From an uncultured Acidimicrobiia bacterium (GTDB lineage: Bacteria; Actinomycetota; Acidimicrobiia; IMCC26256; PALSA-555): 64,000 nucleotides of DNA. The stretch lies in assembly GCA_963720675.1 (NCBI GenBank), contig CAVRGH010000010.1:491830-555829 (forward strand). Direction: 5' to 3'. Below, piece by piece: positions 26,321 through 43,486 of the stretch. The notes below the pieces were generated by a model. The model was not told the origin of the DNA and searched no databases. It was given only the letters and a program-made list of their open reading frames with translations. Position numbers and translations under genes: made by a program. Positions within the stretch are counted from its first letter, which is position 1. Each line of letters opens with the position of its first letter.

Positions 26321-28987
26321 TCACGTCCTTGGCAGTCGCCCAATTCGGTCCGAAGCCGATGTCGACGACGAGCGGGACGTTGAGCTCGGTGACGGACTCC
26401 ATCGTCTCGCGCAGGACGGGCTCGACCCGTTCGCGCTCGTCGACGGGCACCTCGAAGACGAGCTCGTCGTGCACGGTCAGGAGCATCCGCGTCTCGAAGC
26501 CACCCGCGTCGAGCGCGGCGTCGACGTCGATCATCGCCAGCTTGAAGATGTCGGCGGCCGAACCCTGGATCGGCGCGTTCTGCGCCATCCGCTCCCCCAT
26601 CTGGCGGATGCGGAAGTTGTCGGACGACAGCTCGGCGATCTGGCGCCGCCGACCGAAGATCGTGGTCGTGTAGCCGCGGCCCTTCGCCTCTTCCACCGTC
26701 TCGCTCCATGAACGCGGCGACGTTGGGGAACGCCTCGAAGTAGTCGTCGAGGATGACCCGCGCCTCGTCGACCGCGACATCCATGCGCTGGCTCAGGCCG
26801 TACGCCTCCATGCCGTAGGCGAGCCCGTAGTTCACGACCTTGGCGAAGCGACGGTCCTCTGCGTTCACGTCGGCCTCGTCCTTGTGGAAGACCTTCGCGG
26901 CGGTGGCGGTGTGGATGTCGACGCCGCGCTCGAACGCATCGACGAGGCCCGGGTCCTCTGCGAGGTGCGCGAGGACGCGCAGCTCGATCTGGCTGTAGTC
27001 GGCCGTGAGCAAACCGAAGCCGTCGTCCGCGACGAACGCCCGGCGGAACTCCCGACCGTCCGCGGTCCGGACCGGGATGTTCTGGAGGTTCGGTGCCTCG
27101 CTGGAGATCCGGCCGGTCGTGGTGTCGGTCTGCTTGAAGGTCGCGTGGATCCGCCCGTCGGGACCGATGAGCGGGGGCAGGGCATCGGCGTAGGTGCCGC
27201 GCAGCTTCTCGACCTCCCGGTAGTGGAGGAGGTCGGCGACGATCGGGTGGTCGTCGATCATCTTCTGCAGCGAGTCGGCGTCGGTGGACGGTCCGGTCTT
27301 GGTCTTCTTGACCGGAGTCAGCCCGAGCTTGTCGAAGAGCACGACGCGCATCTGCGGTGTGGAGTTCACGTTGAACTCCTCCCCGGCATGCGCCCAGATC
27401 GCGCGCATCAGGCGGTCGCACTCCTTGTTGAGCTCCGCGCTCAGCGCGCTCAGGAACTCGCGGTCCATGCGGATCCCGGTGCGCTCCATCTTCGCGAGCA
27501 CGCGCACGAGCGGCCGCTCGAACCGCTCGTACAGATCGGTGAGCTCTCGTGCGACGAGCGCTTCGCCCAGCACGTCGGCGAGCTGGAGCACCACCGCGGC
27601 GCGGCGCCCGGTCTCCTCGGCACCGGCCGTGCCTTCGAGGTCGAGCGTGCCCTCCTCGACGTCGGGCGAGCGCACCTCCAGAGAGAGGAACCGCAGCGCG
27701 AGATCCTCGAGCAGGAACTTCCCGGCGCCGGGATCGAGGAGGTACGCCATCACCGCGGTGTCCGACTCGAGGGTGCGCACGTCGGCACCGAGCCCGTGCA
27801 TGAGGTCCTTCGCACGGTGTGCCACCAGCGGCGGGCCCCCCGGCCCGACCAGCTCGCCACCCGCCGCGAGCACGTCCGGGTCGCCGAGCAACGCCCCGTC
27901 GAGGTACGACACGTCGCCGTCGTCGGTCGCGATCGCGAGCCCGATCAGTCCGCTCCGTCCGGGCGTGCCGTCCCAGCGGGCCTCGAGCGCGTAGCGCTTC
28001 CCCGCCTTCGCGATCGCCCGGAGGCGCTTCGTCGCCGCCGCCGCGTCGCGGAGCACGACCACTTCGGTCTCCAGCGTCTCGGACTCCGCCTCCGGTTCGG
28101 CCGCGACCGCACCGACCGCGGCCATCATCCGCGGGAGCAGCGTGCGGAACGCGAGCTGATCGAAGAGCACCCGCACGCGCTCCTGGTCGAAGGCGCCCTG
28201 GCGCAGCTCGTCGGGCGTGATGCCGGTGTCGACGTCGAGACGCAGCTCCGACATGTCGCGGTTCAGCCGCACGCGATCGGCCATCTCGGTGAGGTTCTGG
28301 CGCTGCTTCGGGGGGAGCTCGTCGACGTGGGCGAGGATCCCTTCGATGTCGCCGTAGGTCGTGACGAGCTTCGCCGCCGTCTTCTCGCCGATCCCGGGGA
28401 CGCCCGGCAGGTTGTCGCTGGAGTCACCCCGCAGCGCGGCGTACTGGACGTACTGGTCGGGCGTGACGCCACCGGTCCGCTCGACGATCCCCGCCTCGTC
28501 GTAGAGGGCGTAGTCCGAGACGCCGCGCTTGTTGTAGAGGACCTTGAGGTGCGGGTCGTGCACGAGCTGGAACGCGTCGCGGTCGCCGGTGACGACCACG
28601 ACGTCCATGCCGCCGTCGGCGGCCTGGGTCGCGAGCGTCGCGATCACGTCGTCGGCCTCCACGCCCTCGATCTCGATCGTCGGGATCTCGAGGACCTCGA
28701 GCACCTCCCGGATGAGGGGGAGCTGCGACTTGAAGACGTCGGGCGTGGCCTTGCGCCCGGCCTTGTAGTCGGGGTCCATCGTCGTGGCGGAAGGACTTCA
28801 CCGGCGCGTCGAACGCGACGCCGATCAGCTCGGGCTGCTCGTCGGCCAGCACCTTCGTGAGCATCGAGGTGAAGCCGAAGACGGCGTTCGTGATCGTCCC
28901 GTCGGGGGTCGCGAGATCTGCAGGCAGCGCGTAGAACGCCCGGTACGCGAGCGAGTGCCCGTCGAGGAGGAGAAGCTTCTCGGCCAT
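26321..28987 (-). pseudogene. polA: DNA polymerase I, reading frame broken three times (about 28781, 26712 and 26325)
   Basis: The 5'-nuclease N-terminus MAEKLLLLDGHSLAYRAFYALP...FDAPVKSFRHD is in ORF 28424..28987. The body (DPDYKAGRKATPD ... KTGPSTDADSLQ ... ADYSQIELRVLAHL) is in 26242..28779. The palm/fingers end (TTTIFGRRRQI...QGSAADIFKLAMI...LLTVHDELVFE...VDIGFGPNWATAKD) is in 26052..26780. One extra nt (AAGGACGTGA versus AAGGGTTGA in the orphan copy) removes the expected stop at 26323..26321, so the frame runs on to 26052. Confidence 0.93.
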
Positions 28988-29026
28988 TCGGCCGATGGTA
29001 CGAACGCGCGATCGGGCGAGGCGGTC

Positions 29027-29620
29027 CTACTCCGGGGCGAGCTCGCCCTCGATGATCCGACGCGCGATCTCGCCGATCTTCACCCGGTTGCTCATCGCCT
29101 GGGTCTGGATGAACCGCCACGCAGCGTGCTCGTCGTAGCCGTACTCGTCCATGAGCCGGCCTTTGGCCCGGTCGATCAGCTTGCGCGACTCCAGCCGCTC
29201 CTCGAGGTCCTCGACGTGGCGTTCCAGGGAGGTGAGCTCGGTGTGCCGCGCGAGCGCCACCTCGATCGCCGGCATGAGGTCGCTCTTCTGGAACGGCTTC
29301 ACCAGATACGCGAGCGCACCGGCGTCCCGGGCCTGCTCGACCAGGTCGCGCTGGGAGAACGCGGTGAGGATGAGGACGGCGGCGAGCCGTTCGCTCGTGA
29401 TCTGGCGCGCGGCCGAGAGCCCGTCGAGGCCCGGCATCTTCACGTCGAGGATGACGAGGTCGGGGACGAGGTCGCGCACGAGCTCGATCGCCTCGTCGCC
29501 GCGGCCGGTCTCGCCCACGACGTCGTAGCCCTCCTCTTCGAGGAGCTCCTTGAGGTCGAGACGGATGATCGCCTCGTCCTCGGCGATCACGACACGCGGG
29601 CTGCTGGTGCTCGGGGTCAT
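29027..29620 (-). CDS. pdtaR: ANTAR-domain response regulator (PdtaR-like)
   Basis: Internal ATG 29620 of ORF 29027..30631. Receiver domain (VVIAEDEAIIRLDLKELLEEEGYDVV...DLVILDVKMPGLDG...LVKPF) followed by ANTAR (LESRKLIDRAKGRLMDEYGYDEHAAWRFIQTQAMSNRVKIGEIA). Confidence 0.85.
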   Translation of the reverse strand: MTPSTSSPRVVIAEDEAIIRLDLKELLEEEGYDVVGETGRGDEAIELVRDLVPDLVILDVKMPGLDGLSAARQITSERLAAVLILTAFSQRDLVEQARDAGALAYLVKPFQKSDLMPAIEVALARHTELTSLERHVEDLEERLESRKLIDRAKGRLMDEYGYDEHAAWRFIQTQAMSNRVKIGEIARRIIEGELAPE

Positions 29621-29637
29621 CGGCGTCGGCCCGGGGC

Positions 29638-29937
29638 TCAGCGGGCCGAGAGCTCGGCCGACATGCGGTCGAGCAAGGCGTCCTGCTCGCGCTCGAGCCC
29701 CGCAGTAGAGAGGACGAGCGAATCGCGGTGTCGGCTCAGCGCATCGGCGTGGCGCCGGGCGTCCCGGGCCTCTGCGTCGGTGAGCGGGGTCTCGGCCACC
29801 AGGGCGCGCAGGCGCGCGTCCTCGGCTTCCTCCTCCAGGAAGAGGAGCTGTTCCTCGGTGACGGCCAGCTCGGCTCGGAGACGCTTGAGCCGGTCGGACA
29901 CGTCCACGAGGCGCCGCTGCAGGAGTGACCGCGTCAT
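29638..29937 (-). CDS. Small coiled-coil protein, unknown function, 17 nt upstream of pdtaR
   Basis: 99-aa ORF rich in heptad-like L/E/R repeats (LKRLRAELAVTEEQLLFLEEEAEDARLRALV). ATG start. Same strand and tight spacing with pdtaR. Confidence 0.45.
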   Translation of the reverse strand: MTRSLLQRRLVDVSDRLKRLRAELAVTEEQLLFLEEEAEDARLRALVAETPLTDAEARDARRHADALSRHRDSLVLSTAGLEREQDALLDRMSAELSAR

Positions 29938-29995
29938 GGACCGGAGAGTCTACGGGGGAAGTGACGGTGTGGCACCGTATCTGGGTGGTTCCCCG

Positions 29996-31154
29996 ATGAC
30001 CCCCCATCCGATCTTCACGGCCGAGCACGACGAGCTCCGGGGATCGGTCCGCCGGTTCGTCGAGGCCGAGCTGGCTCCGCACGTCGACGAGTGGGAGGAC
30101 GCCGGCTCGTTCCCCGACGAGGTCTTCCGCCGGGCCGGCGAGCTGGGGTTCCTGGGCCTCCACTACCCCGAGGCCTGGGGTGGGTCGGGCGGCGACCTGG
30201 CTGCGGAGCTCGTGTTCGTCGAGGAGATCGCCAAGGCAGGCTGCGGGGCGATCGCGATGGCGCTGTCGGTCCAGACCGACATGGCCACTCCCGCGCTCGG
30301 CGAGTTCGGCACCGACGACCAGAAGGAGCGGTACCTCCGCCCGGCGATCGCCGGCACGAAGATCGCAGCCATCGCGATCACCGAGCCCGACGCCGGCTCG
30401 GACGTCGCGGGCATCGGCACCCGAGCGACGCTCGACGGCGACGTCTGGCGCGTCAACGGGACGAAGCTCTACATCACGAACGGCGCGCGGGCCGACTTCC
30501 TCACGTGCGTCGTGAAGACGGACGCGTCGGCCGGGCATAGCCGGCATCTCGCTCCTGCTGGTCGACACCGACCTCCCGGGCGTGACGGTGTCACGCAAGC
30601 TCCGCAAGCTCGGGATGTGGTCGAGTGACACCGCCGAGATCGCGCTCGACGACGTCGCCGTCCCCGCCGCGAACCTGATCGGCCTCGAACCGGGTCACGG
30701 GTTCGCGCAGCTGATGTGGCAGCTCCAGTACGAGCGCATGTCAGGCGCAGCCGCGTGCCTCGGCTACGCGGAGAGCGTCCTCGACGAGACCATCGCGTAT
30801 GCGAAGGACCGCAACGCGTTCGGCCGTCCGATCGCCGGCCACCAGGTCGTCGCGCACATGCTCGCCGACGCGGCGACCGAGCTCACCGCGGCGCGCGCCC
30901 TCGTGTACGACACCGCGTGGCGGATCCTGCAGGGCGACTACCCCGTCGCCGAGATCTCGATGGCGAAGAAGTACTCGGCCCAGGTCTTCAACCGCCTCGT
31001 CGACACCTGCCTCCAGGTGCACGGCGGCATGGGGTACATGCACGAGGCCCGGGTGAGCCGCGCGTTCCGCGACGCAAGGCTGCAGCGCATCGGTGCCGGG
31101 ACGGACGAGATCATGAACGAGGTGATCGCCAAGCGTCTCGGGATCACGCCCTGA
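29996..31154 (+). pseudogene. Acyl-CoA dehydrogenase, frame broken once near 30541
   Basis: N-terminal and middle domains (MTPHPIFTAEHDELRGSVRRFVEAELAPHVDEWE...AIAITEPDAGSDVAGI...YITNGARADF) form the tail of ORF 28784..30628. The C-terminal domain (LRKLGMWSSDTAEIALDDV...QVHGGMGYMHEARVSRAFRDARLQRIGAGTDEIM) is in 30582..31154. Removing one C in AGCCGGCATC restores SGISLLLVDTDLPGVTV. Confidence 0.85.
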
Positions 31155-31205
31155 GGCGTGCCTCAGCCGGTTGGGCTTCGCGCGCTCTGCGTGCCCTGGG
31201 GCCGC

Positions 31206-31694
31206 TCAGCCGCCGACGACGGTGGCGCAGGTGTTGTCGGAGTACTCGCACGTGTAGGTGCCGAGATCTCCGTCGGCCAAGTTCTCGGCCGAGTTGCTCA
31301 CGTTGAACGTCAAGCCCTTCCACTCGACGTAGACGCGTGAACCCGCGGCCGGTGCGGCGGACGTCTTGACCTTGTACTTCATCAGGCAGACGTCGTCGCC
31401 GAGGAACTTCGCGGCCTTGCCCTTGGCCAGCTTGCCGGTGCCGAGCTTGGTGAAGTCACCGTCGACGCTCTGGGAGATCGTCACCTTCGCTCCGGGCTTG
31501 GCGACCCCGAACGCGCCCTCGCCGTGGCAGTTCTTGTTCGGCCCCACGGCCGCGAGGCCCTCGAACTGCAGCGCACCCTTGAAGGTGGGACCCGACGCCT
31601 TCCGCACCGAGGCGGGCGCAGCCGGAGCAGCGAGCGCGAGGCAGGTCAGGGCGAGCAGCGCGCCGACGAGCAGACGACGGGGTGTCCTCGGCAT
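31206..31694 (-). CDS. Secreted Cys-containing hypothetical protein
   Basis: Internal ATG 31694 preceded by GGAGG. Signal peptide MPRTPRRLLVGALLALTCLALAAPAAPA, then four Cys residues in the mature part. Confidence 0.55.
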   Translation of the reverse strand: MPRTPRRLLVGALLALTCLALAAPAAPASVRKASGPTFKGALQFEGLAAVGPNKNCHGEGAFGVAKPGAKVTISQSVDGDFTKLGTGKLAKGKAAKFLGDDVCLMKYKVKTSAAPAAGSRVYVEWKGLTFNVSNSAENLADGDLGTYTCEYSDNTCATVVGG

Positions 31695-31871
31695 TCGAGT
31701 GCCTCCAGCATCGGGAGCGGAACACCACACCGGAGCGCGGCGGAACGCCAACCTAACCGCCCAGAGCGCTCACCCGATCACGGAGAGGACGCGCGGTTCG
31801 CTCAACACCGGGACCTGGGCTGCCGATACAGGGGTCACTCCGCCGCGCCAGGCGCGTCGGACCCCCACATC

Positions 31872-32908
31872 ATGCGCCGGACCCCTCCCCTCCTCCTCCC
31901 CACGCTCGTCGTGCTGGTCGTCGCCCTAGTGGCGTCGTCGAGCGCGGCGTTCGGCGCGGCCGGCGGCGATCCGCTCATCGAGCTGCGCGCCGAGCGCGAC
32001 CGTACCCAGGCCGCGGCGGTCGATGCCGCGCAGCGCTACAGCGACGCCCTCTCCGAACAAGCGGCCCAGGAGGCGGAGATCGCGAGGCTCGAAGCCGAGA
32101 TCCCGAAGCTTCGGGCCCGCTCGGCGGAGCTCCAGGTCCAGGTGCGCGACCGTGCCGTCGACCTGTACCAGCAGGGCTCGTCGATGCCGCTGTCGAGGAT
32201 GATCGACGCGGGGAGCGTCATCCAAGCAGCGCGCGCGATCCAGCTCAGCTCGAGCGCCGCCAACCACGACCGCGACCTCGCGGCCGAGCTCACGCGCACC
32301 GCGGCGCAGCTCACCAAGGACGAGGCCGAGCTGCAAGGTGCGCAAGGCCGCGCAGGACGCGCTGGTACTCCAGCTCGCCGACCAGAAGACCGGGCTCGAC
32401 GTCGCGCTCGCTGCGGCCGACGTCGCGGTGCAGAACCTCGAAGCCGTCGGTGGCATCACAAGCCGAGTTCGCGACCCTCGACGGCGCCGCGGCCGGGCAG
32501 GTGCGCACCGGCGCCGCGGTGTGTCCCGTCGCCGGGATCACCGTGTTCGTCAACGACTGGGGCGCGCCACGCAGCGGTGGACGCACGCACAAGGGCACCG
32601 ACATGCTCGCCGCGATGGGCACGCCACTCGTCGCGGTCACCGAGGGCACGGTCGAGTGGAACCTCGACGACCTCGGCGGGGTCGGCATCTGGCTCCGTGG
32701 TGACGACGGTGTCGGCTACTACTACGCGCACCTGAGCTGGTACGAAGGCGACGCGCCGCGGCGCGTCACGCGTGGCGAGGTGATCGGCTACGTGGGTGAC
32801 ACGGGGAACGCCAAGGGCGGCCCGCCGCACCTGCACTTCGGGATCCGTGCGCCGTCGGGCGAGATGGTCAACCCCTACCCCACCGTCCGTGCGCTGTGTC
32901 ACCCCTAG
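31872..32908 (+). pseudogene. Secreted coiled-coil M23 (LytM-domain) peptidase, frame broken twice (about 32337 and 32447)
   Basis: Signal/TM MRRTPPLLLPTLVVLVVALVASSSA plus a coiled coil are in ORF 31524..32735. The middle segment VRKAAQDALVLQLADQKTGLDVAL is in 32338..32703. The catalytic domain (RSGGRTHKGTDMLAAMGTPLVAV...YYYAHLS...GYVGDTGNAKGGPPHLHFGI) is in 32450..32908. Confidence 0.8.
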
Positions 32909-32920
32909 GTGCGTTCGATG

Positions 32921-33004
32921 GTGCCCGAGGAGGGATTCGAACCCTCATGCCCTTTCGAGCAATGGATTTTGAGTCCATCGTGTATGCCGTTCCACCACTC
33001 GGGC
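32921..33004 (-). tRNA. tRNA-Leu (anticodon CAA), encoded CCA
   Basis: Minus strand: GCCCGAGTGGTGGAACGGCATACACGATGGACTCAAAATCCATTGCTCGAAAGGGCATGAGGGTTCGAATCCCTCCTCGGGCACCA. It has a 7-bp acceptor stem, anticodon loop CT-CAA-AA, a long variable arm and a GGTTCGAATCC T-arm. Confidence 0.93.
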
Positions 33005-33045
33005 AATAGTCTGATCTTGACACGACGCCCCGTACACTGAGCGCC

Positions 33046-33294
33046 GTGCTTCCCGTGCTCGCGACCGACTGGGTGCCGTGGATCCTCGGGATCTGCGTGC
33101 TCTCGGTCGTCGTCCTGATCCTGATCATCGTCGCACCCTGGCGCGGCGTGCGCCGCGAGCCGCCGCTCGACAGCGAGGTGGAGGCCCGCCTGCTCCTCGG
33201 TGAGGACCCCGACGAGATCGACCGCGACCTCGCAGCGCGCGACGCGCAGCGCCGGGGGCAGGTGACGGACCTGCGTCCCGACGACGAAGCCTGA
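33046..33294 (+). CDS. Small membrane protein, unknown function
   Basis: 82-aa ORF (GTG start) with one clear TM helix (WVPWILGICVLSVVVLILIIVAPW) and an acidic tail. Confidence 0.45.
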   Translation: MLPVLATDWVPWILGICVLSVVVLILIIVAPWRGVRREPPLDSEVEARLLLGEDPDEIDRDLAARDAQRRGQVTDLRPDDEA

Positions 33295-33300
33295 GGTGCT

Positions 33301-33741
33301 CTAGAGCGTCGCCTCCGCGAGCGCGAAGAAGATCCGCCCTTCGCACGACTTCTCGCCCTCGACCGTCGACAGTGCACGCGCCCAGCCGCCGCGCGCGGAG
33401 AGGCGCTCCATCTCGACGTGGAGCGTGAGCTCGTCGCCCGGTCGCACGAGGCGACGCCAGCGCACCTTCTCGACGCCGCCGAAGAGCGGGAGCTTGCCGG
33501 TGTAGCGCTCGTCGGCGAGCAGCGCGATCCCGCCGGCCTGGGCGAGCGCCTCCAGCTGGATGACGCCGGGGAGCACCGGGAAGCCGGGGAAGTGGCCGCC
33601 GAGGAAGTCCTCGTCGCCGGTGACCCGGTAGCGCGCGGTGATCGAGGCGCCCGGCTCGCAGGCGTCGACCGCGTCGATGAACCGGAACGGCGGCCGGTGC
33701 GGCAACAGGGCGATGAAGTCCGCTGACTCGAGCTTCGTCAT
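33301..33741 (-). CDS. fabZ: 3-hydroxyacyl-ACP dehydratase
   Basis: LLPHRPPFRFID...FLGGHFPGFPVLPGVIQLEALAQAGG hot-dog FabZ signature. The ORF starts at TTG 33750; ATG 33741 is preferred. Confidence 0.85.
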   Translation of the reverse strand: MTKLESADFIALLPHRPPFRFIDAVDACEPGASITARYRVTGDEDFLGGHFPGFPVLPGVIQLEALAQAGGIALLADERYTGKLPLFGGVEKVRWRRLVRPGDELTLHVEMERLSARGGWARALSTVEGEKSCEGRIFFALAEATL

Positions 33742-33839
33742 GGGGCGCAAGTTACCCGCGAGTCACGTGTAACCCCGGTGAACCGGGGCTGGTCGAACCA
33801 ACTACAGCACGTTTCGAGGGCACGGGAGAGGGATCGTTC

Positions 33840-34761
33840 GTGGGCATCGGCATCGTGTTCCCCGGTCAGGGAACCCAGACCCCGGGGATGGGCCTGCCCT
33901 GGCGCGACCACCCCGCGTGGTCCGTCGTCGAGCGGGCCGAGGCCGCGTTCGGGGAGCCGCTCGCCTCCCTCGTCCTCGACGCGCCGGCCGAGCAGCTCGC
34001 CCGGACCCGCGACGCACAGCTCGCCGTCCTCCTCACCTCGCTCGTCGTGTGGGAGGCCATCCGCGATCAGGTCACCGCACCGGTGGCGTTCGCCGGGCAC
34101 TCCCTCGGCCAGGTCACCGCGCTCATCGCATCCGGCGCGCTCCCCCTCGACGCCGGTGTCCGCTTCGCGGCCCGGCGGGCCGAGCTCACCCAGGCCGCAG
34201 CCGACGCCCACCCCGGCCGGATGGCCGCGCTGCTCGGCGCGACCGTCGAGCAGGCCGAGGCCGCGTGCGAAGCCGCCCCCGACGCTTGCTGGGTCGCGAA
34301 CGACAACGCGCCGGGGCAGGTCGTCATCGCCGGCACGCCCGACGGCGTCGACGCCGGCAGCGCACGCGCCAAGGAGCTCGGCGTGAAGCGCGCCACGGCC
34401 CTGAACGTCGGCGGCGCGTTCCACACGCCCTCTGATGCGCGACGCGGCGGACGCCCTGCCCGCCGTCCTCGCCGACACCACCTTCTCGGCACCGAACGCA
34501 CCGGTCGTCTCCAACCTCGACGCTCGCGCCTACGACGGCCCCGACGGGTGGGTCGAACGCTCGAGCGAGCACGTCGCGGTCCCCGTCCGCTGGCGCGAGT
34601 CGATGCTGACGATGGTCGACCTCGGCGCCACGTCGTTCCTCGAGGTAGGGAACGGCTCGATGCTCGCGGGGCTCGCGAAGCGGATCACCCCCGACACGCC
34701 CGTACGCGGCATCGCCACCCCGGACGATGCCGCCGCGCTGCAGATGGAAGAGGTCGGCTGA
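33840..34761 (+). pseudogene. fabD: Malonyl-CoA:ACP transacylase, frame broken once near 34431
   Basis: GIVFPGQGTQTPGMG...AFAGHSLGQVTALIASG...NAPGQVVIAG...GGAFHTP is in ORF 33840..35021. It continues as LMRDAADALPAVLA...VRWRESM in ORF 34435..34761. Deleting the T in CCCTCTGATG restores the frame. Confidence 0.88.
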
Positions 34762-35021
34762 TGGAAGGGCTGCTCGACAGTGGTGAGGGTCTGCTGGTCC
34801 CGGAGCGGATGATCGTCGCCCCGGCCGTCGGCACGTTCCGCTCCGTCAGCCTGAGCGATGGCGCCCAGCTCAGCACGGGCCAGACTGTGGGCATGGTCGA
34901 CGGTCCCGGTACCTCCACACCGGTCGCGAGCCCCTTCACCGGGCAGCTCGTCGGGATGCTCGTGCACCCCGGGGAACGTCTGCGTGAGGGGCAGCCCGTC
35001 GCGTGGCTGCGGGTCCACTGA
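34761..35021 (+). CDS. Biotinyl/lipoyl-domain (BCCP-like) protein lacking any lysine
   Basis: ATG overlaps the fabD stop (TGATG). IVAPAVGTFRSVSLSDGAQLSTGQTVGMVDGPGTSTPVASPFTGQLVGMLVHPGERLREGQPVAWL follows the BCCP hybrid-motif pattern (APxVGTF...G..V..GQ..G.[EAMK]....SP..G.L...LV..GE.L..GQP). DGPG replaces EAMK, and the 86-aa protein contains no lysine. Confidence 0.6.
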   Translation: MEGLLDSGEGLLVPERMIVAPAVGTFRSVSLSDGAQLSTGQTVGMVDGPGTSTPVASPFTGQLVGMLVHPGERLREGQPVAWLRVH

Positions 35022-35069
35022 ACCCCGTCTCCCCGACCCGGCCGATCCGACGCCCGGCGGGCGCCTGAG

Positions 35070-36060
35070 ATGCGCGCGCGTCGATCGCGGGGTGGGGCAC
35101 CGCCGTACCCGAACAGCGCCTCACGAACGCCGACCTCGAGCGGCTGGTCGAGACGAGCAACGACTGGATCGTCGAGCGCACGGGGATCCGGGAGCGCCGC
35201 ATCGCCGCGGCCGGCGAGACCACGGCGAGTCTCGCGGTCGAAGCCGGGACCGCCGCGATCAAGCAGGCGGGCATCACACCCGAGGACATCCAGCTGCTGA
35301 TCGTCGCGACGGCGACGCCCGAGCAGCCGATACCGCACACCGGCGCGTTCGTTGGTGACGGGCTCGGCCTGCGCTGCGGTTCGTTCGACCTCGCGGCGGG
35401 ATGCGCGGGTTTCGTCTACGAGCTCGTCGCCGGTGCCGCGATGCTGACCGCCGGCGGACTCGAGCCATGTGCTCGTCATCGGCGCGGAGACGCTGTCGCG
35501 CATCGTCGACCCGACCGACCGCGGCACCTGCATCATCTTCGGTGACGCCGCCGCCGCGATCGTGCTGGAGACCACGACGAACGACAGCCTGGGCATCCTC
35601 GGCTGGGACCTCGGCTGTGACGGTTCGGCAACCGGGCTGCTCGAGGTCCAGGCCGGCGGGAGCCGGCTGCCGTCGACGCCGGACACGATCGCCGCGGGCC
35701 AGCAGTACATCAAGATGCAGGGACAGGAGGTCTTCCGACGCGCGGTGCGCGCGGTCGTGGACTCCGCGCGCCTCGCACTCGAGAATGCCGGGGTGGCCAC
35801 CTCCGACATCGACTGGTTCGTCCCTCACCAGGCGAACGTGCGGATCATCGAAGCCGCCGCGAGTCGCCTGAACATGCCCGATGGACCGGACCGTCGTGAA
35901 CATCGACCGCTTCGGGAACACGTCCGCCGCGTCGATCCCGCTCGCGCTCTCCGGGGCGGCGGACGACGGCCGGATCAAGGACGGTGACCTCGTGCTCCTC
36001 AGCGGGTTCGGTGCCGGGATGACGTGGGGCAGCGTCGTCGTGCGCTGGGGCCGCGGGTGA
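35070..36060 (+). pseudogene. fabH: 3-oxoacyl-ACP synthase III, frame broken three times (about 35080, 35465 and 35890)
   Basis: SIAGWGTAVPEQRLTNADLERLVETSNDWIVERTGIRERR...FDLAAGCAGFVYEL; then VLVIGAETLSRIVDPTDRGTCIIFGDAAAA...[22 protein letters not shown] (ORF 35469..35987); then [22 protein letters not shown]...[18 protein letters not shown] ending at TGA 36060. Each junction is fixed by removing or adding 1 nt. Confidence 0.88.
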
Positions 36061-36797
36061 GCCACCCCGCCCTCGTCACCGGCGCGTCCCGCGGGATCGG
36101 ACGCGCGATCGCCGTCGCGCTCGGCGCGACGGGCCACCGCGTCGCGTGCGGGTACTCCAGCGACCAGGCGAGCGCCGAGGAGACCTGCGCCGCGGTCCGG
36201 GAGGCCGGCGGCGAAGCGCTCGCCGTCCACATCGACGTCACCGACACCGATTCGGTCGACTCGGCGTTCGGCGAGATCGAGGGTGCCTTCGACCCGGTCA
36301 CCGTCCTGGTGAACAACGCCGGGGTCACCGCCGACGGTCTCGTGGCCCGGATGAGCGACGAGGCCTGGTCGAAGGTCGTCGAGACCAACCTCACGGGTGC
36401 CTTCCACACCATCCGCCGGGCCTCACCCAAGCTGATGCGGGCCCGCTGGGGCCGGATCGTGAACGTCTCGTCGGTCAGCGGCCAGATCGGGGCCCCCGGC
36501 CAGGCCAACTACTCTGCTGCGAAGGCGGGCCTCGTCGGGCTCACCCGGGCGGTGGCCCGGGAACTGGCTCCCCGCAACGTCACCTGCAACATCGTGGCGC
36601 CGGGGCCTATCGTGACCGCCATGACCGAGGGCATGCCGGCCGAATGGCACGGTGCCATGGAGGCCACGGTGCCCCTCGGACGTCTCGGGACCCCCGAGGA
36701 GGTGGCGGCCGTCGTCGGCTTCCTCTGCTCGGACGCCGCGGCCTACGTCACCGGTGCGATCGTGCCGGTCGACGGCGGCCTCGGCATGGGCCACTGA
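36057..36797 (+). CDS. fabG: 3-oxoacyl-ACP reductase
   Basis: GTG overlaps the fabH stop (GTGA). [15 protein letters not shown]...NNAG...[24 protein letters not shown] signature. Confidence 0.88.
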
Positions 36798-36835
36798 GAA
36801 GGCGACCACTGAGCAGACCACCACTGAGCAGACGA
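36791..36835 (+). repeat. Three tandem 15-bp repeats at the fabG stop / acpP leader
   Basis: CCACTGAGAAGGCGA, CCACTGAGCAGACCA, CCACTGAGCAGACGA. Each unit carries TGA in the fabG frame, and the first contains the fabG stop. Confidence 0.7.
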
Positions 36836-36882
36836 TCACCCGACCAACAATCCCCCGAACCGAACCGAGAAGGAGCACATCG

Positions 36883-37134
36883 ATGGACCGTGACGAGGGA
36901 CTCGCCGCTCTGCGCGAAGTGGCCGTGGAGGTCCTGAGCGTCGAGCCCGACACCGTCACCTACGAGGCCCGCTTCAAGGAAGACCTCGACGCGGACAGCC
37001 TCGACCTCGTGGAGCTCGTGATGGGCCTCGAGGAGCGCTTCGACATCTCGGTGCCCGAGGAAGACCTCGAAGGGGTCGCCACGGTCGGTCAGGCCGTCGA
37101 CCTCGTGCTCGCCAAGGTCGCAGCGCAGCCATGA
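36883..37134 (+). CDS. acpP: Acyl carrier protein
   Basis: 83 aa with [21 protein letters not shown] (phosphopantetheine Ser in DSLD). GAAGGAG RBS 7 nt upstream of ATG 36883. Confidence 0.9.
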
Positions 37135-38387
37135 GCGACGCCGCACGCGACCATCTCGGCCGCCCTCGGGTCGCCGTGACCGGCATCGGGGTGAAGGCCC
37201 CCGCCGGGAACGACCTCGCGTCGTTCTGGGCCAACGTGCGCGCGGGCAAGTCCATGGCGCGGACGATCGAGCAGTTCGACCCGACCGATCCCGAGCTCCC
37301 CGTGCGCTTCGCGTGCGAGGTGCGCGACTTCGACCCGGTGGAGTACTTCGGGCCCAAAGAGGTCCGACGTCAGGACCGGGTCACGCACTTCGGCTTCGCT
37401 GCCGCATCGGACGCGATCAACGACGCCGGCGACCTCGGGGCCGACCCGAGCCGCTGCGCGGTGATCGCGGCCACCGGCGTCGGCGGACTCACGACGCTCC
37501 AGGAGAACGTCACGACGTTCCTCGACAAGGGCCCGTCGCGCGTCAGTCCGTTCTTCGTCCCGATGATGATGCCGAACGCGACCGCGGGTGCGATCTCGAT
37601 CCACTTCGGGTTCACCGGACCCGCGCTGTGCATCTCGACCGCATGCGCGGCCGGCGCGAACGGGATCGGTGAGGCGGCGCGGATGATCCGGGACTCCAGC
37701 GCCGACGTCGTCGTCGCGGGCGGCACCGAAGCGTTCACGTCCGTCACCGTCGCCGCGTTCGCCCGGATGGGCGCGCTCAGCGGCCGCAACGACGAGCCCG
37801 AGCTCGCCTCGCGCCCGTTCGACGTCGAGCGCGATGGCTTCGTCATCGCCGAAGGTGCGGCATTCGTCGTGCTGGAGAGCCTGGAGCGGGCGCGGGCACG
37901 CGGCGCACGGATCTACGGCGAGGTGTCCGGCTACGGGCGCAACGCCGACGCCTTCCACATCACGGCACCGTCGCCGGGAGGCGTGGGGGCGGCGACGTGC
38001 ATGCAGCAGGCGCTCGAGGACGCGGGGCTCGACCCGTCCGACGTCGGCCAGATCAACGCCCACGGAACCTCCACGCCGATGAACGACTCCACCGAAGCCG
38101 AGGCCATCCACAAGGTGTTCGGCGACGACGGTCCGCCCGTCACGGGCAGCAAGGGCGTCACCGGGCACATGATCGGTGCCGCAGGCGCGTGCGAAGCCGT
38201 CATCGCACTCTGCTCCATCGCCGACGGCGTCGTCCCGCCCACGGCCAACACGGAGAAGATCGGCGAGGAGATCGGTCTCGACGTCGTGATCGGTGCCGAG
38301 CGCGAGGTCGACAAGCTGCCCGTCATCTCGAACTCCTTCGGCTTCGGTGGCCACAACGCCTCGTTGGTGCTGACGCCCACCGCGTGA
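37131..38387 (+). CDS. fabF: 3-oxoacyl-ACP synthase II (KAS I/II)
   Basis: 418-aa ORF with [12 protein letters not shown]...[15 protein letters not shown]...[14 protein letters not shown]...[18 protein letters not shown] overlap with the acpP stop. Confidence 0.92.
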
Positions 38388-39766
38388 CGACGGCGCCCAC
38401 GCCCACGCCGCTCGCGGGCCGCCGCAGCGAGGCCGCGAGCGCGCACCTCACCGAGATCGACGGCCGGACCGTCGCCCAGTTCGAACTCCGGGGCGGCAAG
38501 CACGTCGGCGCCATCGGTCCCCCCGAGGGGAAGACGATCACCGGCATCACCGAGCTCGCGGTCGAGCTCGGGGTCCCGATCGTCGGCACCCTCGCGTCGT
38601 CGGGCGCGGACGTCGCCGAGGGCATGCCGTCGCTGCACGCCTGGGGTGAGATGGCCCGGGCGCTGGCGAACGCGTCCGGTGTCGTCCCCACCGTGCTGGT
38701 GGTCGTCGGGCCGTGCGTCTCCGGCCCGGCCCTCCTCCTCGGGCTCGCCGACATCGTCGTCATGACCGAGGAGGCGTTCGCGTACGTCACCGGTCCCGAC
38801 ACGGTGCGTTCGTTCACCGGCATCGACGTCGACCACCGCGGCCTCGGCGGCGCCGGGGTGCACGGTCGCCGGAGCGGGGTCGCCACGTTGGTCGTCACCG
38901 ACGAGGACGCGGCGCACGACGTCGTGGGTGCGATCCTCGATCTCCTGCCGTCGAACCACCTCCAGGACCCGCCGCGGTTCGCGACCTCCGACCCCGTCGA
39001 TCGCGATTGCGCCCGCGCCGCCGGCGCGGTGCCCGCACGACCCAACGCCTCGTACGACATCCGCGTCGTGATCGAAGACGTGCTCGACGCCGACACCTTC
39101 ATCGAGCTGCGGCCCACGCACGCGGCGAACCTGGTGACCGGGCTCGGCCGACTCGACGGTCGCCCGGTGGGTGTCGTCGCCAACCAGCCGCAGCAGCGCG
39201 CCGGGACGATCGACATCGAGGCCTCGGAGAAGGCGGCCCGGTTCGTGCAGTGGTGCGACTGCTTCAACCTGCCGCTCCTCACGTTCGTCGACACCCCCGG
39301 GTTCGAGCCCGGCAAGGACCTCGAGTGGCGCGGGATGATCCGCCACGGCGCGGAGCTCGTGTACGCCTACGCGGGGGCGACGGTGCCGCGCCTCTGCGTC
39401 GTCGTCCGCAAGGCGTACGGCGGTGCCTACATCGTCATGGACTCGAAGGGGCTCGGGAACGACTGGTGCGGCGCCTGGCCGTCGGCCGAGATCGCCGTCA
39501 TGGGCGCGCCCGGCGCCGTCCAGATCCTCCACGGACGCCGCCTGCAGGCCCACGACGACGACACCGAGCGCCTCCGAGAGCAGGCCGAGCTCGAGCTCGC
39601 GTACGAGGAGCGCTTCGCCAACCCGTACGTCGCGGCCGAGCGCGGCTTCGTCGACGCCGTGCTCCCTGCGTCCGACACCCGCCGCATCCTGGCCAGCGCC
39701 CTCGATCGGCTCGCCACCAAGCGCGAGCAGCTCCCACCCCGCCGACACGGCAACACGCCGCTCTAA
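38384..39766 (+). CDS. accD: Acyl-CoA carboxylase carboxyltransferase beta subunit (AccD6-like)
   Basis: GTG overlaps the fabF stop (GTGA). GVVANQPQQRAGTIDIEASEKAARFVQWCDCFNLPLLTFVDTPGFEPG...RKAYGGAYIVM carboxyltransferase signature. Its position after the KAS gene mirrors the mycobacterial fabD-acpM-kasA-kasB-accD6 locus. Confidence 0.85.
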   Translation: MTTAPTPTPLAGRRSEAASAHLTEIDGRTVAQFELRGGKHVGAIGPPEGKTITGITELAVELGVPIVGTLASSGADVAEGMPSLHAWGEMARALANASGVVPTVLVVVGPCVSGPALLLGLADIVVMTEEAFAYVTGPDTVRSFTGIDVDHRGLGGAGVHGRRSGVATLVVTDEDAAHDVVGAILDLLPSNHLQDPPRFATSDPVDRDCARAAGAVPARPNASYDIRVVIEDVLDADTFIELRPTHAANLVTGLGRLDGRPVGVVANQPQQRAGTIDIEASEKAARFVQWCDCFNLPLLTFVDTPGFEPGKDLEWRGMIRHGAELVYAYAGATVPRLCVVVRKAYGGAYIVMDSKGLGNDWCGAWPSAEIAVMGAPGAVQILHGRRLQAHDDDTERLREQAELELAYEERFANPYVAAERGFVDAVLPASDTRRILASALDRLATKREQLPPRRHGNTPL

Positions 39767-39783
39767 CAGGATCGGATCACGTC

Positions 39784-40539
39784 ATGCTGCTCGAAGGTAA
39801 GCGGATTCTCGTCACCGGCGTCCTGAACGACGCGTCGATCGCGTTCTCGGTCGCGCGACGCGCGCAGGAAGAAGGCGCCGAGGTCGTGCTCACGAGCTTC
39901 GGTCGGGTGACGCGCCTCACCGAGCGCACCTCGAAGCGGCTGCCGGTCGAGGCCGAGGTGATCGAGCTCGACGTCGGCAACGAGGACGATCTCGCCGCGC
40001 TCGCGGGACGGGTCGGCGGCAAGCTCGACGGGGTCATGCACGCGATCGGATTCGCGCCCGAGTCCTGTCTCGGCGGCGGGTTCCTCGATGCGCCGTGGGA
40101 GGACGTCGCGATCGCGCTGCAGGTCTCGGCCTACTCCCTGAAGTCGCTCGCGGTCGCGGCACTCCCCCTCATGGAGCGGGGCGGCTCGATCGTCGGACTC
40201 GACTTCGACAACACCCAGGCCTGGCCGGTCTACGACTGGATGGGCGTCGCGAAGTCGGCGTTCGAGTCGGTGTCGCGGTACCTCGCGAAGGAGCTCGGGC
40301 CCCAGGGCATCCGCGTGAACCTCGTCGCCGCCGGGCCCATCCGCACGATGGCGGCGAAGAGCATCCCGGGCTTCGAGAAGTTCGAGGAGGTGTGGGCCGA
40401 GCGCGCACCGCTCGGCTGGGACATCCGCGACCCCGAACCCGTGGCGAACGCGTGCATCGCGCTCTTCACGGACCTCTTCTCGGCGACGACCGGCGAGATG
40501 CTCCACGTGGACGGCGGCTTCCACGCCGTCGGCGCGTAG
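39784..40539 (+). CDS. fabI: Enoyl-ACP reductase (NADH), InhA/FabI type
   Basis: MLLEGKRILVTGVLNDASIAFSVA...AIGFAP...YDWMGVAKSAFES...RVNLVAAGPIRT, a FabI/InhA pattern. Confidence 0.9.
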   Translation: MLLEGKRILVTGVLNDASIAFSVARRAQEEGAEVVLTSFGRVTRLTERTSKRLPVEAEVIELDVGNEDDLAALAGRVGGKLDGVMHAIGFAPESCLGGGFLDAPWEDVAIALQVSAYSLKSLAVAALPLMERGGSIVGLDFDNTQAWPVYDWMGVAKSAFESVSRYLAKELGPQGIRVNLVAAGPIRTMAAKSIPGFEKFEEVWAERAPLGWDIRDPEPVANACIALFTDLFSATTGEMLHVDGGFHAVGA

Positions 40540-40561
40540 CGACCGAGCCGCGGCCGCGCGT

Positions 40562-41029
40562 TCAGTCGCCCTTGAGCGCGGCGCTCACCTTGGGAACGGT
40601 GTCCTTCGGGCTCACCTTGTAGAACGTCGCCGCGACCTTGCCCTGCTCGTCGATGACGAACGCCGAGCGCACGATCCCCATGAACTTCTTGCCGTACATG
40701 GACTTCTCACCCCACGCTCCGAACTTCTCGGCGACCTTGTGGTCTTCGTCCGCGAGCAGCTCGAACCCGAGTGAGTACTTGTCGTCGAACCGCTTCTGCT
40801 TCTCCGGGGTGTCGGGACTGATACCGAGCACCACTGCCTTGAGCTTCTTGAGATCAGGCATCGCGTCGCGCAGGGAGCACGACTGCGTGGTGCAGCCGGG
40901 TGTGTCGGCCCTCGGATAGAAGTACACGACGACGCGCTTGCCCTTGAAGTCGGACAAGCGGACCTTCTTGCCCTTCTGGTCGGTCAGCGTGAACGCCGGT
41001 GCTCGCGACCCGACCTTGAGCTCTGCCAC
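40562..41029 (-). CDS. bcp: Peroxiredoxin Bcp (thiol peroxidase)
   Basis: 155 aa with GKRVVVYFYPRADTPGCTTQSC, an AhpC/TSA motif. Confidence 0.9.
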   Translation of the reverse strand: MAELKVGSRAPAFTLTDQKGKKVRLSDFKGKRVVVYFYPRADTPGCTTQSCSLRDAMPDLKKLKAVVLGISPDTPEKQKRFDDKYSLGFELLADEDHKVAEKFGAWGEKSMYGKKFMGIVRSAFVIDEQGKVAATFYKVSPKDTVPKVSAALKGD

Positions 41030-41069
41030 TTCTGCCCCACCTCATCGTCTGCGCCCGTGACTGCGTAGC

Positions 41070-42669
41070 ATGCCGCACGTGCGGCGCCGAGTGCTCGTCC
41101 GGCTCGATGCGCCGCCCGATCGAGTGCGCGCCGTAGCGATCCGCGCACTCACTCTCCGCGACTCTCCCGGACACCTCCTCGTGGGTGACCTTGCCCACAG
41201 CACCGGCGACGCAACCGCCCGACTCACCGTCGACGTCCACGCGGCCGAGCCGGCCGCCGGCGCGAGCCCGACGACCGAGATCGAGCTCGTCGGGACCTCG
41301 GACCTCCACGTGCCGTTCTTCGGCTGGATCATCGCCCCGCTCACGAGGCTGGGTATGCGCCGCGCGCTCGGACACGCGGTCGAGATGCTCGAGGCAGCGT
41401 TGGCCGGCGAGCCCGCGCCCGAACATCGGCGTCACGCGTTGCTGCCTCCCGTCCCGTTCACGACCGAACAGGCCGGCCGCCTCGCCGCGCTCGCCGCCGT
41501 CGGCGCGCTGGCCAGCTTCAGCGGTGCGCTGCTCACCCAGAACGGGGATGCCGTCGCCCGCTCGTTCCACGAGTCGGACGGTTCGCTCGGCGTCGCCCTG
41601 GCCCTGGCCCGAAGTGGCGTGCTCTTCGCCCTGGTCGCGTCGGCGGTCGCGGACCGGGTCGGGCGGCGACGGCTCATCCTGCTGGGGCTCGTCGTCGCGG
41701 CGCTCGCCAACGGCGTCGCCGCGCTGGCGCCGAGCTTCGAGGTCTTCACCGCATCACAGGTCCTGACGCGCGCCGCGCTGAACGCCACGGCAGTCGTCGC
41801 GTCGGTGGCGGCCATCGAGGACGCGCCCGAGGGTGCACGCGCCTACGCCCTCTCACTGTTCGCGCTTGCGCTGGGCCTCGGCTTCGCCCTCTCGGTCGTG
41901 CTCCTCCCCCTCGCCGATCTCGGCGCCGAGTCGTGGCGCATCGCGTTCGTCCTGAGCGCGCTGACGGTCTTCCTCGTACCAGTCCTGGCGCGGCACCTCC
42001 GGGAGACCACCCGCTTCACGCGCGTCGCCACCCGGGTGAAGGAGCGGTGGCGGATCCGCGAGATGTTCGACGACCGCTACGGGCGGACGGTTCCTCATGC
42101 TCGGCCTCGTGGCGTTCCTCGCGAACGTCTTCGCCGCTCCGTCGTCACAGCTCACCAACCGGTACCTCACCGGCGCGCACGACTTCTCGAACTCGCAGGT
42201 CGCGATCTTCCGCTCGATCACTGCCGGGGCTCCGGGCATCTTCGGGGTGCTCCTCGCGGGTCGCCTCGCCGAGAGCCGCGGCCGTCGGCCGGTCGCGATC
42301 ATCGGTCTCCTGGTGGCGACGGCCGCGCAGGCCGCGTTCTTCCTCGGCGACGGTGCCCTGCTCTGGCTCGCGCCCACGCTCGCGATCATGGCCGCGGCGT
42401 GCGCCGGGCTCGCCGTCGGCACCGTGAACACCGAGCTCTTCCCCACCGAGGTGCGCGGCACGTCGAACGGATTCATCCTCGTCTGCGGCGTCGTCGGCGC
42501 TGCGCTCGGTCTGGTGCTCGCCACCCAGCTCCGCGACGCAGTGGGTGGTCTCGGACCTGCCATCGCGCTGTGCGGCATCGCGCCGATCATCGCAGCGGTG
42601 CTGCTGCTGCGATACCTCCCGGAGACCCGAGCCCGTACGCTCGACGAGGTCAGCCCGTCCGAGGTCTGA
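41070..42669 (+). pseudogene. MFS transporter with about 140-aa N-terminal soluble extension, frame broken once near 42087
   Basis: ORF 41070..42794 carries the extension plus TM1-6 (DRVGRRRLILLGLVVAALANGVAAL). ORF 42097..42669 carries TM7-12. Deleting the A in GGGCGGACGGTTC gives DDRYGRRFLMLGLVAFL. Confidence 0.7.
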
Positions 42670-42691
42670 CGCAACAACAGGAGGCGTTCCC

Positions 42692-43486
42692 GTGTCTGAC
42701 TACCGCGCCGCGCTCGACGGCTTCACCGAGTCGCCCTTCACGCACGACGGCACGACGAGGCCCGTCTTCAGCGCCGGGAGCGGTCCGGCCGTGATCGTGA
42801 TCAGCGAGATGCCGGGGCTGCATCCCGGCGTGGTCGCCTTCGGACAACGGGTCGTCGACCGCGGCTTCCACGTCCGGATGCCGTCGTTGTTCGGCACCCC
42901 GGGCCGCCCGGTGAGCGTGCCGTACGTGCTGGGTTCGATCACGTCGGGCTGCGTGTCGCGCGACTTCGTCACGTGGGCGCTGGACCGCACCAGCCCGATC
43001 ACCGCGTGGCTGCGAGCCCTCGCCGCCGACGCCCACGAGGCGTGCGGGGGTCCCGGCGTGGGCGCGGTCGGCATGTGCTTCACCGGCGGGTTCGCGCTCG
43101 GGATGATGCTCGACGAGCGACTCCAGGCACCGGTGTTGAGCCAGCCGTCGCTGCCGTTCGCGATCGGGAAGCGTCGGCGCGCGGCACTCGGCATCAGCGA
43201 CGCGGACCTCGCGGTCGTCAAGGAGCGGGCTGCGCAGGGCGCTTGCGTGATGGGTCTGCGCTTCTCGGCCGACCGCATGGTGCCGGGTGACCGCTTCGAC
43301 ACGCTCCGAGCGGCGCTCGGCGAGTCGTTCATCGCCGTCGAGATCGACTCGTCGAAGGGGAACGAGCACGGCATCAAGACCAGCGCGCACTCCGTGCTCT
43401 CGGAAGAGTTCGTCGATGATCCCGCGCATCCCACGTACGAGGCACTCGAGCGCGTGTTGACCTTCTTCGACGAGCGGCTGCGCTAG
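42692..43486 (+). CDS. Dienelactone hydrolase family protein
   Basis: GTG 42692 follows AGGAGG. VIVISEMPGLHPGVVAFGQRVVDRGF...GAVGMCFTGGFAL (nucleophile Cys elbow), DLH-like. Confidence 0.75.
   Translation: MSDYRAALDGFTESPFTHDGTTRPVFSAGSGPAVIVISEMPGLHPGVVAFGQRVVDRGFHVRMPSLFGTPGRPVSVPYVLGSITSGCVSRDFVTWALDRTSPITAWLRALAADAHEACGGPGVGAVGMCFTGGFALGMMLDERLQAPVLSQPSLPFAIGKRRRAALGISDADLAVVKERAAQGACVMGLRFSADRMVPGDRFDTLRAALGESFIAVEIDSSKGNEHGIKTSAHSVLSEEFVDDPAHPTYEALERVLTFFDERLR

Follow-up and report, generated by a model that had tools for sequence, protein, structure and literature searches.

The window analysed in this work is a 64,000-nt stretch of contig CAVRGH010000010.1 from an uncultured Acidimicrobiia bacterium. 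Within it, an operon for fatty acid synthesis of type II (FAS-II) contains a small gene between fabD and fabH, which encode malonyl-CoA:acyl carrier protein (ACP) transacylase and ketoacyl-ACP synthase III (KAS III), respectively. This intact open reading frame (ORF) extends from 34761 to 35021 on the + strand and encodes an 86-amino-acid protein, which we call X, that lacks lysine altogether (MEGLLDSGEGLLVPERMIVAPAVGTFRSVSLSDGAQLSTGQTVGMVDGPGTSTPVASPFTGQLVGMLVHPGERLREGQPVAWLRVH). We found that the gene is a fixed member of this operon type and that its product is predicted to have the fold of biotinyl and lipoyl domains with a glycine in place of the modified lysine. Our tentative interpretation is that X may serve as a docking subunit at the initiation step of fatty acid synthesis. 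The ATG start codon of X (34761-34763) overlaps the TGA stop codon of fabD (34759-34761) by one base in the arrangement TGATG, whereas the X stop codon (TGA, 35019-35021) is separated by 48 nt from the ATG of fabH at 35070. A purine-rich, Shine-Dalgarno-like sequence, GGAAGAGG (34746-34753, + strand), is situated 7 nt upstream of the X start codon within the 3′ end of fabD and could play that role for X, as judged by reading the sequence. The original prediction, made from the DNA letters of the window, had given the same coordinates, length, TGATG overlap, 48-nt gap and motifs, as well as the absence of lysine, and all of these were correct on re-reading.

One scan of species-representative genomes was carried out with very specific peptide patterns and returned the close Acidimicrobiia clade only. 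It yielded 80 species-level loci, all from metagenome-assembled Acidimicrobiia or unclassified Actinomycetota. The X gene was directly 5′ of fabH in 80 of the 80 loci and directly between fabD and fabH in 79. The 80th locus (L082) has the order fabZ(−) X fabH and contains no fabD in the 9.3 kb covered. In all loci that were long enough, the order was fabZ(−) fabD X fabH fabG acpP fabF accD6 fabI. The distance from the fabD stop codon to the X start codon was mostly −4 to +4 nt and that from the X stop codon to the fabH start codon mostly +2 nt; because of these short gaps, X is in the usual case translationally coupled on both sides. Relatives with about 45% identity to X occupy the same operon in other genomes (L090/L091 and L093/L094). 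These data establish that X is a fixed part of this type of FAS-II operon and is co-translated with it. The survey of fabD-fabH intervals that the original prediction had proposed showed that X is conserved in related genomes; the acceptor column, described below, is free of lysine in a wider set of relatives.

The remaining genes of the operon in the window could be assigned as well. A fabZ-like dehydratase ORF (33301-33750, − strand), 97% identical to a FabA-family gene of a related long contig (L001), is oriented divergently, and its position 5′ of fabD is conserved in the related loci that are long enough to show it. The fabD gene (33840-34761, + strand) matches Acyl_transf_1 over its N-terminal part (E = 7e-23) and contains one extra base near 34427. 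The fabH gene (35070-36060, + strand) was read from a three-frame translation, since it is broken in the window; it is an intact 326-aa ORF in L002. It is followed on the + strand by fabG for ketoacyl-ACP reductase (36057-36797; the L001 homologue has adh_short/KR domains), acpP for ACP (36883-37134; PP-binding homologues lie at the same position in L088, L090 and L093), a fabF/kasA-like ketoacyl synthase gene (37131-38387; homologues with ketoacyl-synt domains), an AccD6-like carboxyltransferase gene (38384-39766) and a fabI/inhA-like enoyl-ACP reductase gene (39784-40539; homologues with adh_short_C2), which is the last gene of the operon. Coupling by GTGA or ATGA overlaps is apparent at three of these junctions, where the GTG of fabG overlaps the fabH stop codon, the ATG of fabF overlaps the acpP stop codon and the GTG of accD6 overlaps the fabF stop codon. 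The carboxyltransferase had been recognized in the original prediction, and its identity was borne out by a Carboxyl_trans match with E = 1.4e-125; accD6 was found in every related FAS-II locus long enough to show it. The same prediction had noted that the operon encodes neither a biotin carboxylase nor a genuine biotin carboxyl carrier protein (BCCP). A crude six-frame motif scan of the 64-kb window agreed, as it detected no biotin carboxylase or BCCP signature. In mycobacteria, accD6 is likewise in the FAS-II locus and accA3 is elsewhere. Such an absence is the usual state in Actinomycetota, and we count it neither for nor against any interpretation.

X might instead be a chance open frame in DNA of 70% G+C or a product of assembly errors, and two properties of the window gave reason to consider this. 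Many spurious ORFs overlap one another, and about 11 frameshifting indel sites are present in about 15 kb (27950-42700) by comparison with intact homologues. Four of these sites were checked base by base against L002, a short-read metagenome contig that is 98.3% identical and has intact genes, and at each of them the window carries extra bases: about 34427 in fabD, and 35072-35073 (codons 2-3), about 35461 and about 35880 in fabH. The extra base in fabD is a G, and comparison with the FabD of L001, which is intact and 306 aa long, places the change of frame at 34429-34430. Protein-to-DNA comparison with L001 revealed further frame changes in the genes for a 5′-3′ exonuclease (two), an acyl-CoA dehydrogenase (one), an M23 peptidase (two) and an MFS transporter (one); further indel positions include about 28036, 28784, 30535, 32320-32455 and 42085. 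These indels look like errors of an error-prone long-read assembly rather than signs of pseudogenes. Because of the base inserted in fabD, X shares a spurious 393-aa open frame (33840-35021, + strand) that runs from the N-terminal part of FabD through an out-of-frame stretch into X. A false FabD-X fusion could thus be called in the window itself, and fusions in databases therefore need to be checked in more than one assembly. In contrast, X has no indel relative to L002, and two further independent assemblies (three in all) encode the very same 86-aa protein, which rules out a frame artefact; the original prediction had named an indel hiding a lysine-containing frame as grounds for its own rejection, and this did not hold. 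The position, length and coupling of X are conserved in 80 species, the median ratio of nonsynonymous to synonymous substitution rates (dN/dS) is 0.21 over 406 pairs, and a fold was predicted for X with confidence. X is under purifying selection, and the conservation and selection data refute the possibility that it is not a gene, to which we assign a negligible probability.

The close homologues of X number 601 at an identity of at least about 70%, and nearly all of them are 85-87 aa long. Among the matches listed, 113 of 120 close homologues have no lysine at all, and 29 columns are invariant among 35 representatives of the close clade. An exhaustive profile search extended the family to 224 clusters at E ≤ 1e-10 and 981 clusters at E ≤ 1e-3. 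Residues conserved in this wider family are G8, E9, L11, E15, R16, P21, G24, F26, G40 and G44 in the N-terminal half and V55, S57-P58-F59, G61, G71-E72-R73, R75, G77-Q78-P79 and A81-W82-L83-R84 in the C-terminal half. They map to an N-terminal extension, to a glycine/proline framework and to the first and last strands.

The original prediction had assigned X to the biotinyl/lipoyl pattern and had proposed a profile search with Pfam Biotin_lipoyl (PF00364) and a structure prediction; the match in the former fell just short of the threshold, and the latter showed the fold. PF00364 matched residues 18-81 of X (E = 1.7e-4) with a score of 21.8 bits, 0.3 short of the gathering score of 22.1. Some relatives clear this threshold (for example, P0168 with 24.8 bits), and many homologues carry a precomputed PF00364 match. 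When a profile of the X family was compared with the sequences of solved lipoyl and biotinyl domains, E-values ranged from 1.2e-8 to 7.6e-6, with 1.2e-8 for the lipoyl domain of Escherichia coli E2p, 3.7e-6 for Pyrococcus horikoshii BCCP and 5.5e-6 for the transcarboxylase 1.3S subunit. The AlphaFold2 model of X is a compact all-beta structure with no helices and a predicted local distance difference test (pLDDT) score of 89.9. Foldseek matched this model to BCCP domains with a probability of 1.00, template modelling (TM) scores of 0.72-0.75 (query) and 0.80-0.91 (target) and a root-mean-square deviation (rmsd) of 1.2-2.7 Å; for P. horikoshii BCCP the TM scores were 0.75 (query) and 0.89 (target) with an rmsd of 1.2-1.4 Å. 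In the biotinyl/lipoyl barrel-sandwich hybrid, two sheets of four strands each form a flattened beta-barrel that has internal two-fold symmetry. These results indicate that X has this fold at the superfamily level, as far as the model and the profile matches show.

The NCBIfam BCCP-type equivalogs PRK07051, PRK05889, PRK06549 and PRK05641 gave weak partial matches of 15.5-19.5 bits against cut-offs of 75-199. A Pfam scan of X at E ≤ 1 gave only Biotin_lipoyl and RnfC_N, so that ACC_epsilon was not matched. X also does not resemble the lipoyl-like domain of membrane fusion proteins (HlyD/AcrA), as it is 86 aa long, its hairpin is uninterrupted and its model contains no helices; the RND_mfp and EmrA models matched it in part and far under their cut-offs. 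PF25997 (BSH_YhbJ) is listed for X and most close homologues, with matches that are weak or faint where flagged, and a structural match to BesA is confined to the lipoyl domain of that protein. BCCP/AccB, the C-terminal domain of actinobacterial AccA3, P. horikoshii BCCP and 1.3S have in common with X the fold, the internal AP.vG.f / SPf.G.l repeat and a C-terminal G-E-x-V-x-x-G-Q. X differs from these biotinyl domains in having Gly for the biotinyl lysine, in lacking A-M-K-M and in having an additional conserved N-terminal G-E-x-L-x-V-x-E-R extension together with invariant W82 and R84. Small free-standing biotin/lipoyl carriers, namely proteins of the mycobacterial TB7.3/PRK05889 type and B. 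subtilis BLAP (PDB 1z6h), share the fold and consist of one domain of 70-90 aa, but they keep the acceptor lysine and are modified, whereas X is lysine-free and reaches 18.6 bits against the 75-bit PRK05889 cut-off. The AccE/PccE epsilon subunits of actinobacterial acyl-CoA carboxylases are, like X, small non-catalytic accessory proteins that belong to the malonyl-CoA supply machinery of Actinomycetota. Their fold and family are unrelated to X, with no Pfam match at E ≤ 1, and their genes adjoin the gene for the beta subunit, whereas X lies between fabD and fabH.

The loss of the acceptor residue could be located by alignment. HMMER paired V-E-G-P-G-T-S-T of the family with L-E-A-M-K-M-E-N of biotinyl domains and with V-E-G-D-K-A-S-M of the E. 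coli E2p lipoyl domain. In X the corresponding hairpin is D47-G-P-G50-T-S-T-P54 (codons 34899-34922, + strand), and Gly50 (codon 34908-34910) takes the place of the modified lysine when the family is aligned with BCCP and lipoyl domains of known structure. This agrees with the original prediction, which had pointed to D-G-P-G in place of E-A-M-K. X therefore has neither the lysine of the (E/A)-M-K-(M/L) hallmark of functional BCCP and biotinyl domains nor that of the lipoyl hallmark D-K-A, and X cannot undergo canonical biotinylation or lipoylation. Lysine was absent from the acceptor column in all 128 diverse relatives, which were drawn from clusters at 50% identity. We dismissed the complete absence of lysine from 86 residues as evidence in its own right: the neighbouring proteins contain 1.5% lysine, and the chance of a lysine-free protein of this length is about 0.26. 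What counts is the family-wide absence of lysine at the hairpin column. In a sister subfamily represented by P0398 (L095 1598-1930) and also by P0247, P0194, P0223, P0248, P0261 and P0271, the hairpin reads S-G-E-K-H, with a lysine two residues past the canonical acceptor column; the context of P0398 (L095/L096) is not a fab operon, and the contig of P0247 was too short for its gene context to be read. The hairpin (residues 48-53) is also the most variable segment of X across the family and is four residues shorter in 19 of 128 relatives, including most of the forms fused to FabD.

X domains also occur as parts of larger proteins. Fusions with the order Acyl_transf_1 then X are represented by P0181, P0402/P0403, P0255, P0201/P0396 and P0269, as well as by the fragments P0259, P0164 and P0258, and the gene for P0181 lies within a complete fab operon and was found in several assemblies. 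The X domains of these FabD-X proteins are divergent (only 40-50% mutual identity), and some of them have the long and others the short hairpin, which implies that the architecture is either old or of repeated origin. In an AlphaFold2 model of P0181 both domains were predicted confidently; the low confidence of the linker at residues 307-317 (pLDDT < 50) and the predicted TM score of 0.76 fit a tethered, mobile X domain rather than a fixed one, although they neither demonstrate nor exclude a fixed contact of X with FabD. In a second type of fusion (P0263; L084 458-1582), a 4′-phosphopantetheinyl transferase (PPTase) is joined to X and a KAS III-like gene follows directly 3′ (1665-2642); this 6.2-kb contig gave no fabD gene call and contains no carboxyltransferase gene. 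A cut, unannotated fragment 5′ of the fusion looked by eye like a nonribosomal peptide synthetase (NRPS) condensation domain; if the fragment is indeed NRPS, L084 would represent use of the X module in secondary metabolism. In P0168 and P0179, a cyclic nucleotide monophosphate (cNMP)-binding domain is combined with X in the C-terminal, effector position. Genes of this kind (L083 866-1612 and L086 906-1634) encode an N-terminal cNMP-binding domain and an X-type domain where CRP/FNR proteins carry their DNA-binding domain, and each is followed by a gene for another cNMP-binding protein. Among the fusions that we found, none joined X to a carboxylase subunit.

The cNMP fusions place the X module in signalling architectures, and the charged residues that are invariant (E15, R16, R73, R75 and R84) are candidates for the lining of a binding site. 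X might accordingly be a regulatory sensor that binds acyl-CoA, malonyl-CoA or acyl-ACP, or receives a signal, and tunes FabD or FabH. In these fusions, however, X occupies the output rather than the sensor position, and its model is a compact all-beta domain; an isolated barrel-sandwich hybrid domain of comparable size is not known to us to bind a ligand. We consider a sensor role very unlikely.

We favour, at a little less than even confidence, the interpretation that X is a cofactor-free "pseudo-carrier", an accessory subunit that docks at the initiation step carried out by FabD and FabH. X would descend from a biotinyl/lipoyl carrier domain that lost its modified lysine and would now be a small module for docking between proteins; in this genome, translational coupling would keep its synthesis in a constant ratio to that of FabD and FabH. 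It would most likely dock on FabH and thereby couple FabD, which supplies malonyl-ACP, to this KAS III; in some lineages it would hang on a flexible linker from the C terminus of FabD, much as BCCP hangs from biotin carboxylase. We infer that X acts by binding, with its N- and C-terminal strands as the working surface and FabH and/or FabD as partner. This interpretation is favoured because BCCP enters carboxylase active sites with its hairpin, whereas the conserved surface of X lies elsewhere, and because X is fused to enzymes that act on ACP (FabD and the PPTase) or to a signalling domain and in no case to a subunit of a carboxylase. The link to KAS III in particular is favoured because X keeps a KAS III neighbour where fabD or accD6 is missing (L082 and L084). 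A module whose output is protein binding also fits the C-terminal effector position of X in the cNMP fusions. Assemblies of FabD and FabH have a precedent in the phylum, as a mycobacterial FAS-II "initiation" complex was found to contain both proteins by two-hybrid and co-immunoprecipitation experiments (PMC4949712). Among the fold matches of X is the lipoyl domain L2, on which pyruvate dehydrogenase kinases dock (PDB 3crk, 1y8n) and which thus offers an example of a docking site on a carrier-type barrel-sandwich domain; the kinases use the lipoyl-lysine arm of L2, which X does not have.

Several observations weigh against docking of X at the FabD/FabH step. Adjacency in the operon cannot separate FabH, FabD, ACP and AccD6 as partners because all of them are co-encoded. 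No X-FabH fusion was present among the 150 representatives listed. Frameshift errors could account for some of the fusions in databases: P0412, which retains an internal, start-like MEAGSVHGE, is a possible example, and the 393-aa frame of the window shows how one can arise. Across the superfamily the X module is not specific to FabH, because L087, L095, L097 and the contig of P0224 are outside fab operons; four sister subfamilies that we sampled (P0202, P0398, P0163 and P0224) all lie outside such operons, with uninformative neighbours. Finally, the hairpin may matter in the close clade, where E/D-G-P-G-T-S-T-P is near-invariant and G48 and G50 are invariant.

The conservation of the hairpin in the close clade leads to the principal alternative, in which X is a mimic of BCCP that docks at the biotinyl-domain site of AccD6 or of the biotin carboxylase half, AccA. 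[quoted passage not shown] X could be a comparable brake on malonyl-CoA synthesis; alternatively, and this is the most attractive form of the idea, it could be a tether, of the kind made explicit by the FabD-X fusions, keeping FabD at the AccA-AccD6 carboxylase and letting malonyl-CoA move directly to ACP. The fold of X is that of BCCP, and among single domains its best matches in sequence are to biotinyl, not lipoyl, domains. The consistent presence of accD6 in the related loci, the near-invariance of the hairpin within the close clade and the layout FabD-linker-X, which copies biotin carboxylase-linker-BCCP, also fit this alternative, and plant BADC proteins are a precedent for BCCP-like regulators that cannot be biotinylated (PMC11889953; PMC12706156). 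Family-wide, however, the hairpin is the segment that varies most and is shortened in some members, among them most FabD-fused forms. In addition, X never adjoins or is fused to the carboxyltransferase, whose gene is four genes away, and the PPTase-X-KAS III locus lacks a carboxyltransferase gene in its 6.2 kb. X is without the N-terminal region of BCCP and BADC and, with E = 0.0026 for the family profile against actinobacterial AccA3 BCCP, is no closer to this protein than to archaeal or propionibacterial BCCPs. We regard a BCCP mimic directed at the carboxylase as somewhat unlikely.

X and plant BADC have in common a BCCP-type fold without the biotinyl lysine or any cofactor, and a genetic tie to fatty acid synthesis. 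They differ in that BADC proteins are full-length BCCP paralogues that join subcomplexes of biotin carboxylase and BCCP (PMC11889953), whereas X, with 86 aa in all, is a bare domain plus a 16-residue extension. X is moreover fused to or coupled with FabD, PPTase and cNMP domains instead of carboxylase parts, and its hairpin is dispensable across the family. The original prediction had proposed that X could be a regulator or adaptor of malonyl-CoA supply analogous to BADC. A regulator or adaptor is plausible; a decoy of the BADC type was not supported in view of the variable hairpin, the non-carboxylase fusions, the bare domain and the gene content of L082 and L084.

A broader version of the docking interpretation, which we consider unlikely, is that X is a re-used, mobile docking arm. 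It would assemble a metabolon for malonyl supply and initiation (carboxyltransferase-FabD-KAS III) and serve elsewhere as the output of cNMP sensors and as a tether for PPTase. The enzymes of bacterial type II fatty acid synthesis are usually regarded as diffusing freely and as completely catalogued, and X represents an additional, tightly co-translated operon member in a whole class of Actinomycetota that are abundant in soil and freshwater. If X organizes or gates the path from malonyl-CoA through malonyl-ACP to the first condensation, bacteria would offer a case of a "dead" carrier turned scaffold or regulator, in parallel to plant BADC. X would then give a handle on the assembly of FAS-II enzymes and would add to the domain repertoire a reusable docking module, fused to FabD, PPTase and cNMP sensors.

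The fold itself and the existence of non-biotinylatable BCCP-like proteins in plants were already known, whereas the X family is new, as are its constant position between fabD and fabH and the repertoire of its fusions. No description of a bacterial protein of this type encoded in a fab operon was found in the searchable full-text literature, which returned only papers on plant BADC and generic papers on ACCase and fatty acid synthesis; the original prediction, which knew of no described bacterial counterpart in this operon position, is in line with this outcome. Neither Pfam nor NCBIfam contains a model specific for X. In the source annotations the homologues appear as "biotin carboxyl carrier protein", "biotin/lipoyl-containing protein", "hypothetical", "AcrA" or "predicted deacylase". 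The JGI label "biotin carboxyl carrier protein" and the NCBI label "biotin/lipoyl-containing protein" are functionally wrong.

Three minor observations concern the operon and its relatives. The FabH proteins of some X-containing operons are 385-394 aa long (L088 9191-10348; L093 1096-2280), compared with 326-334 aa in the clade of the window, and the approximately 60 extra residues might relate to binding of X. Six metagenome-assembled records (L011, L012, L015, L017, L034 and L067) are titled "Bifidobacterium breve" or "uncultured Bifidobacteriaceae bacterium"; they contain a fab operon of the Acidimicrobiia type with 70-80% protein identity to the window, and their taxonomy looks mislabelled. 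Rfam, tRNA and promoter/terminator scans around the operon revealed nothing relevant to X. The sole RNA gene detected in the 64 kb is a tRNA-Leu (CAA) gene at 32919-33004 (− strand), which has the M23 peptidase gene on one side and the fabZ/fab region on the other.

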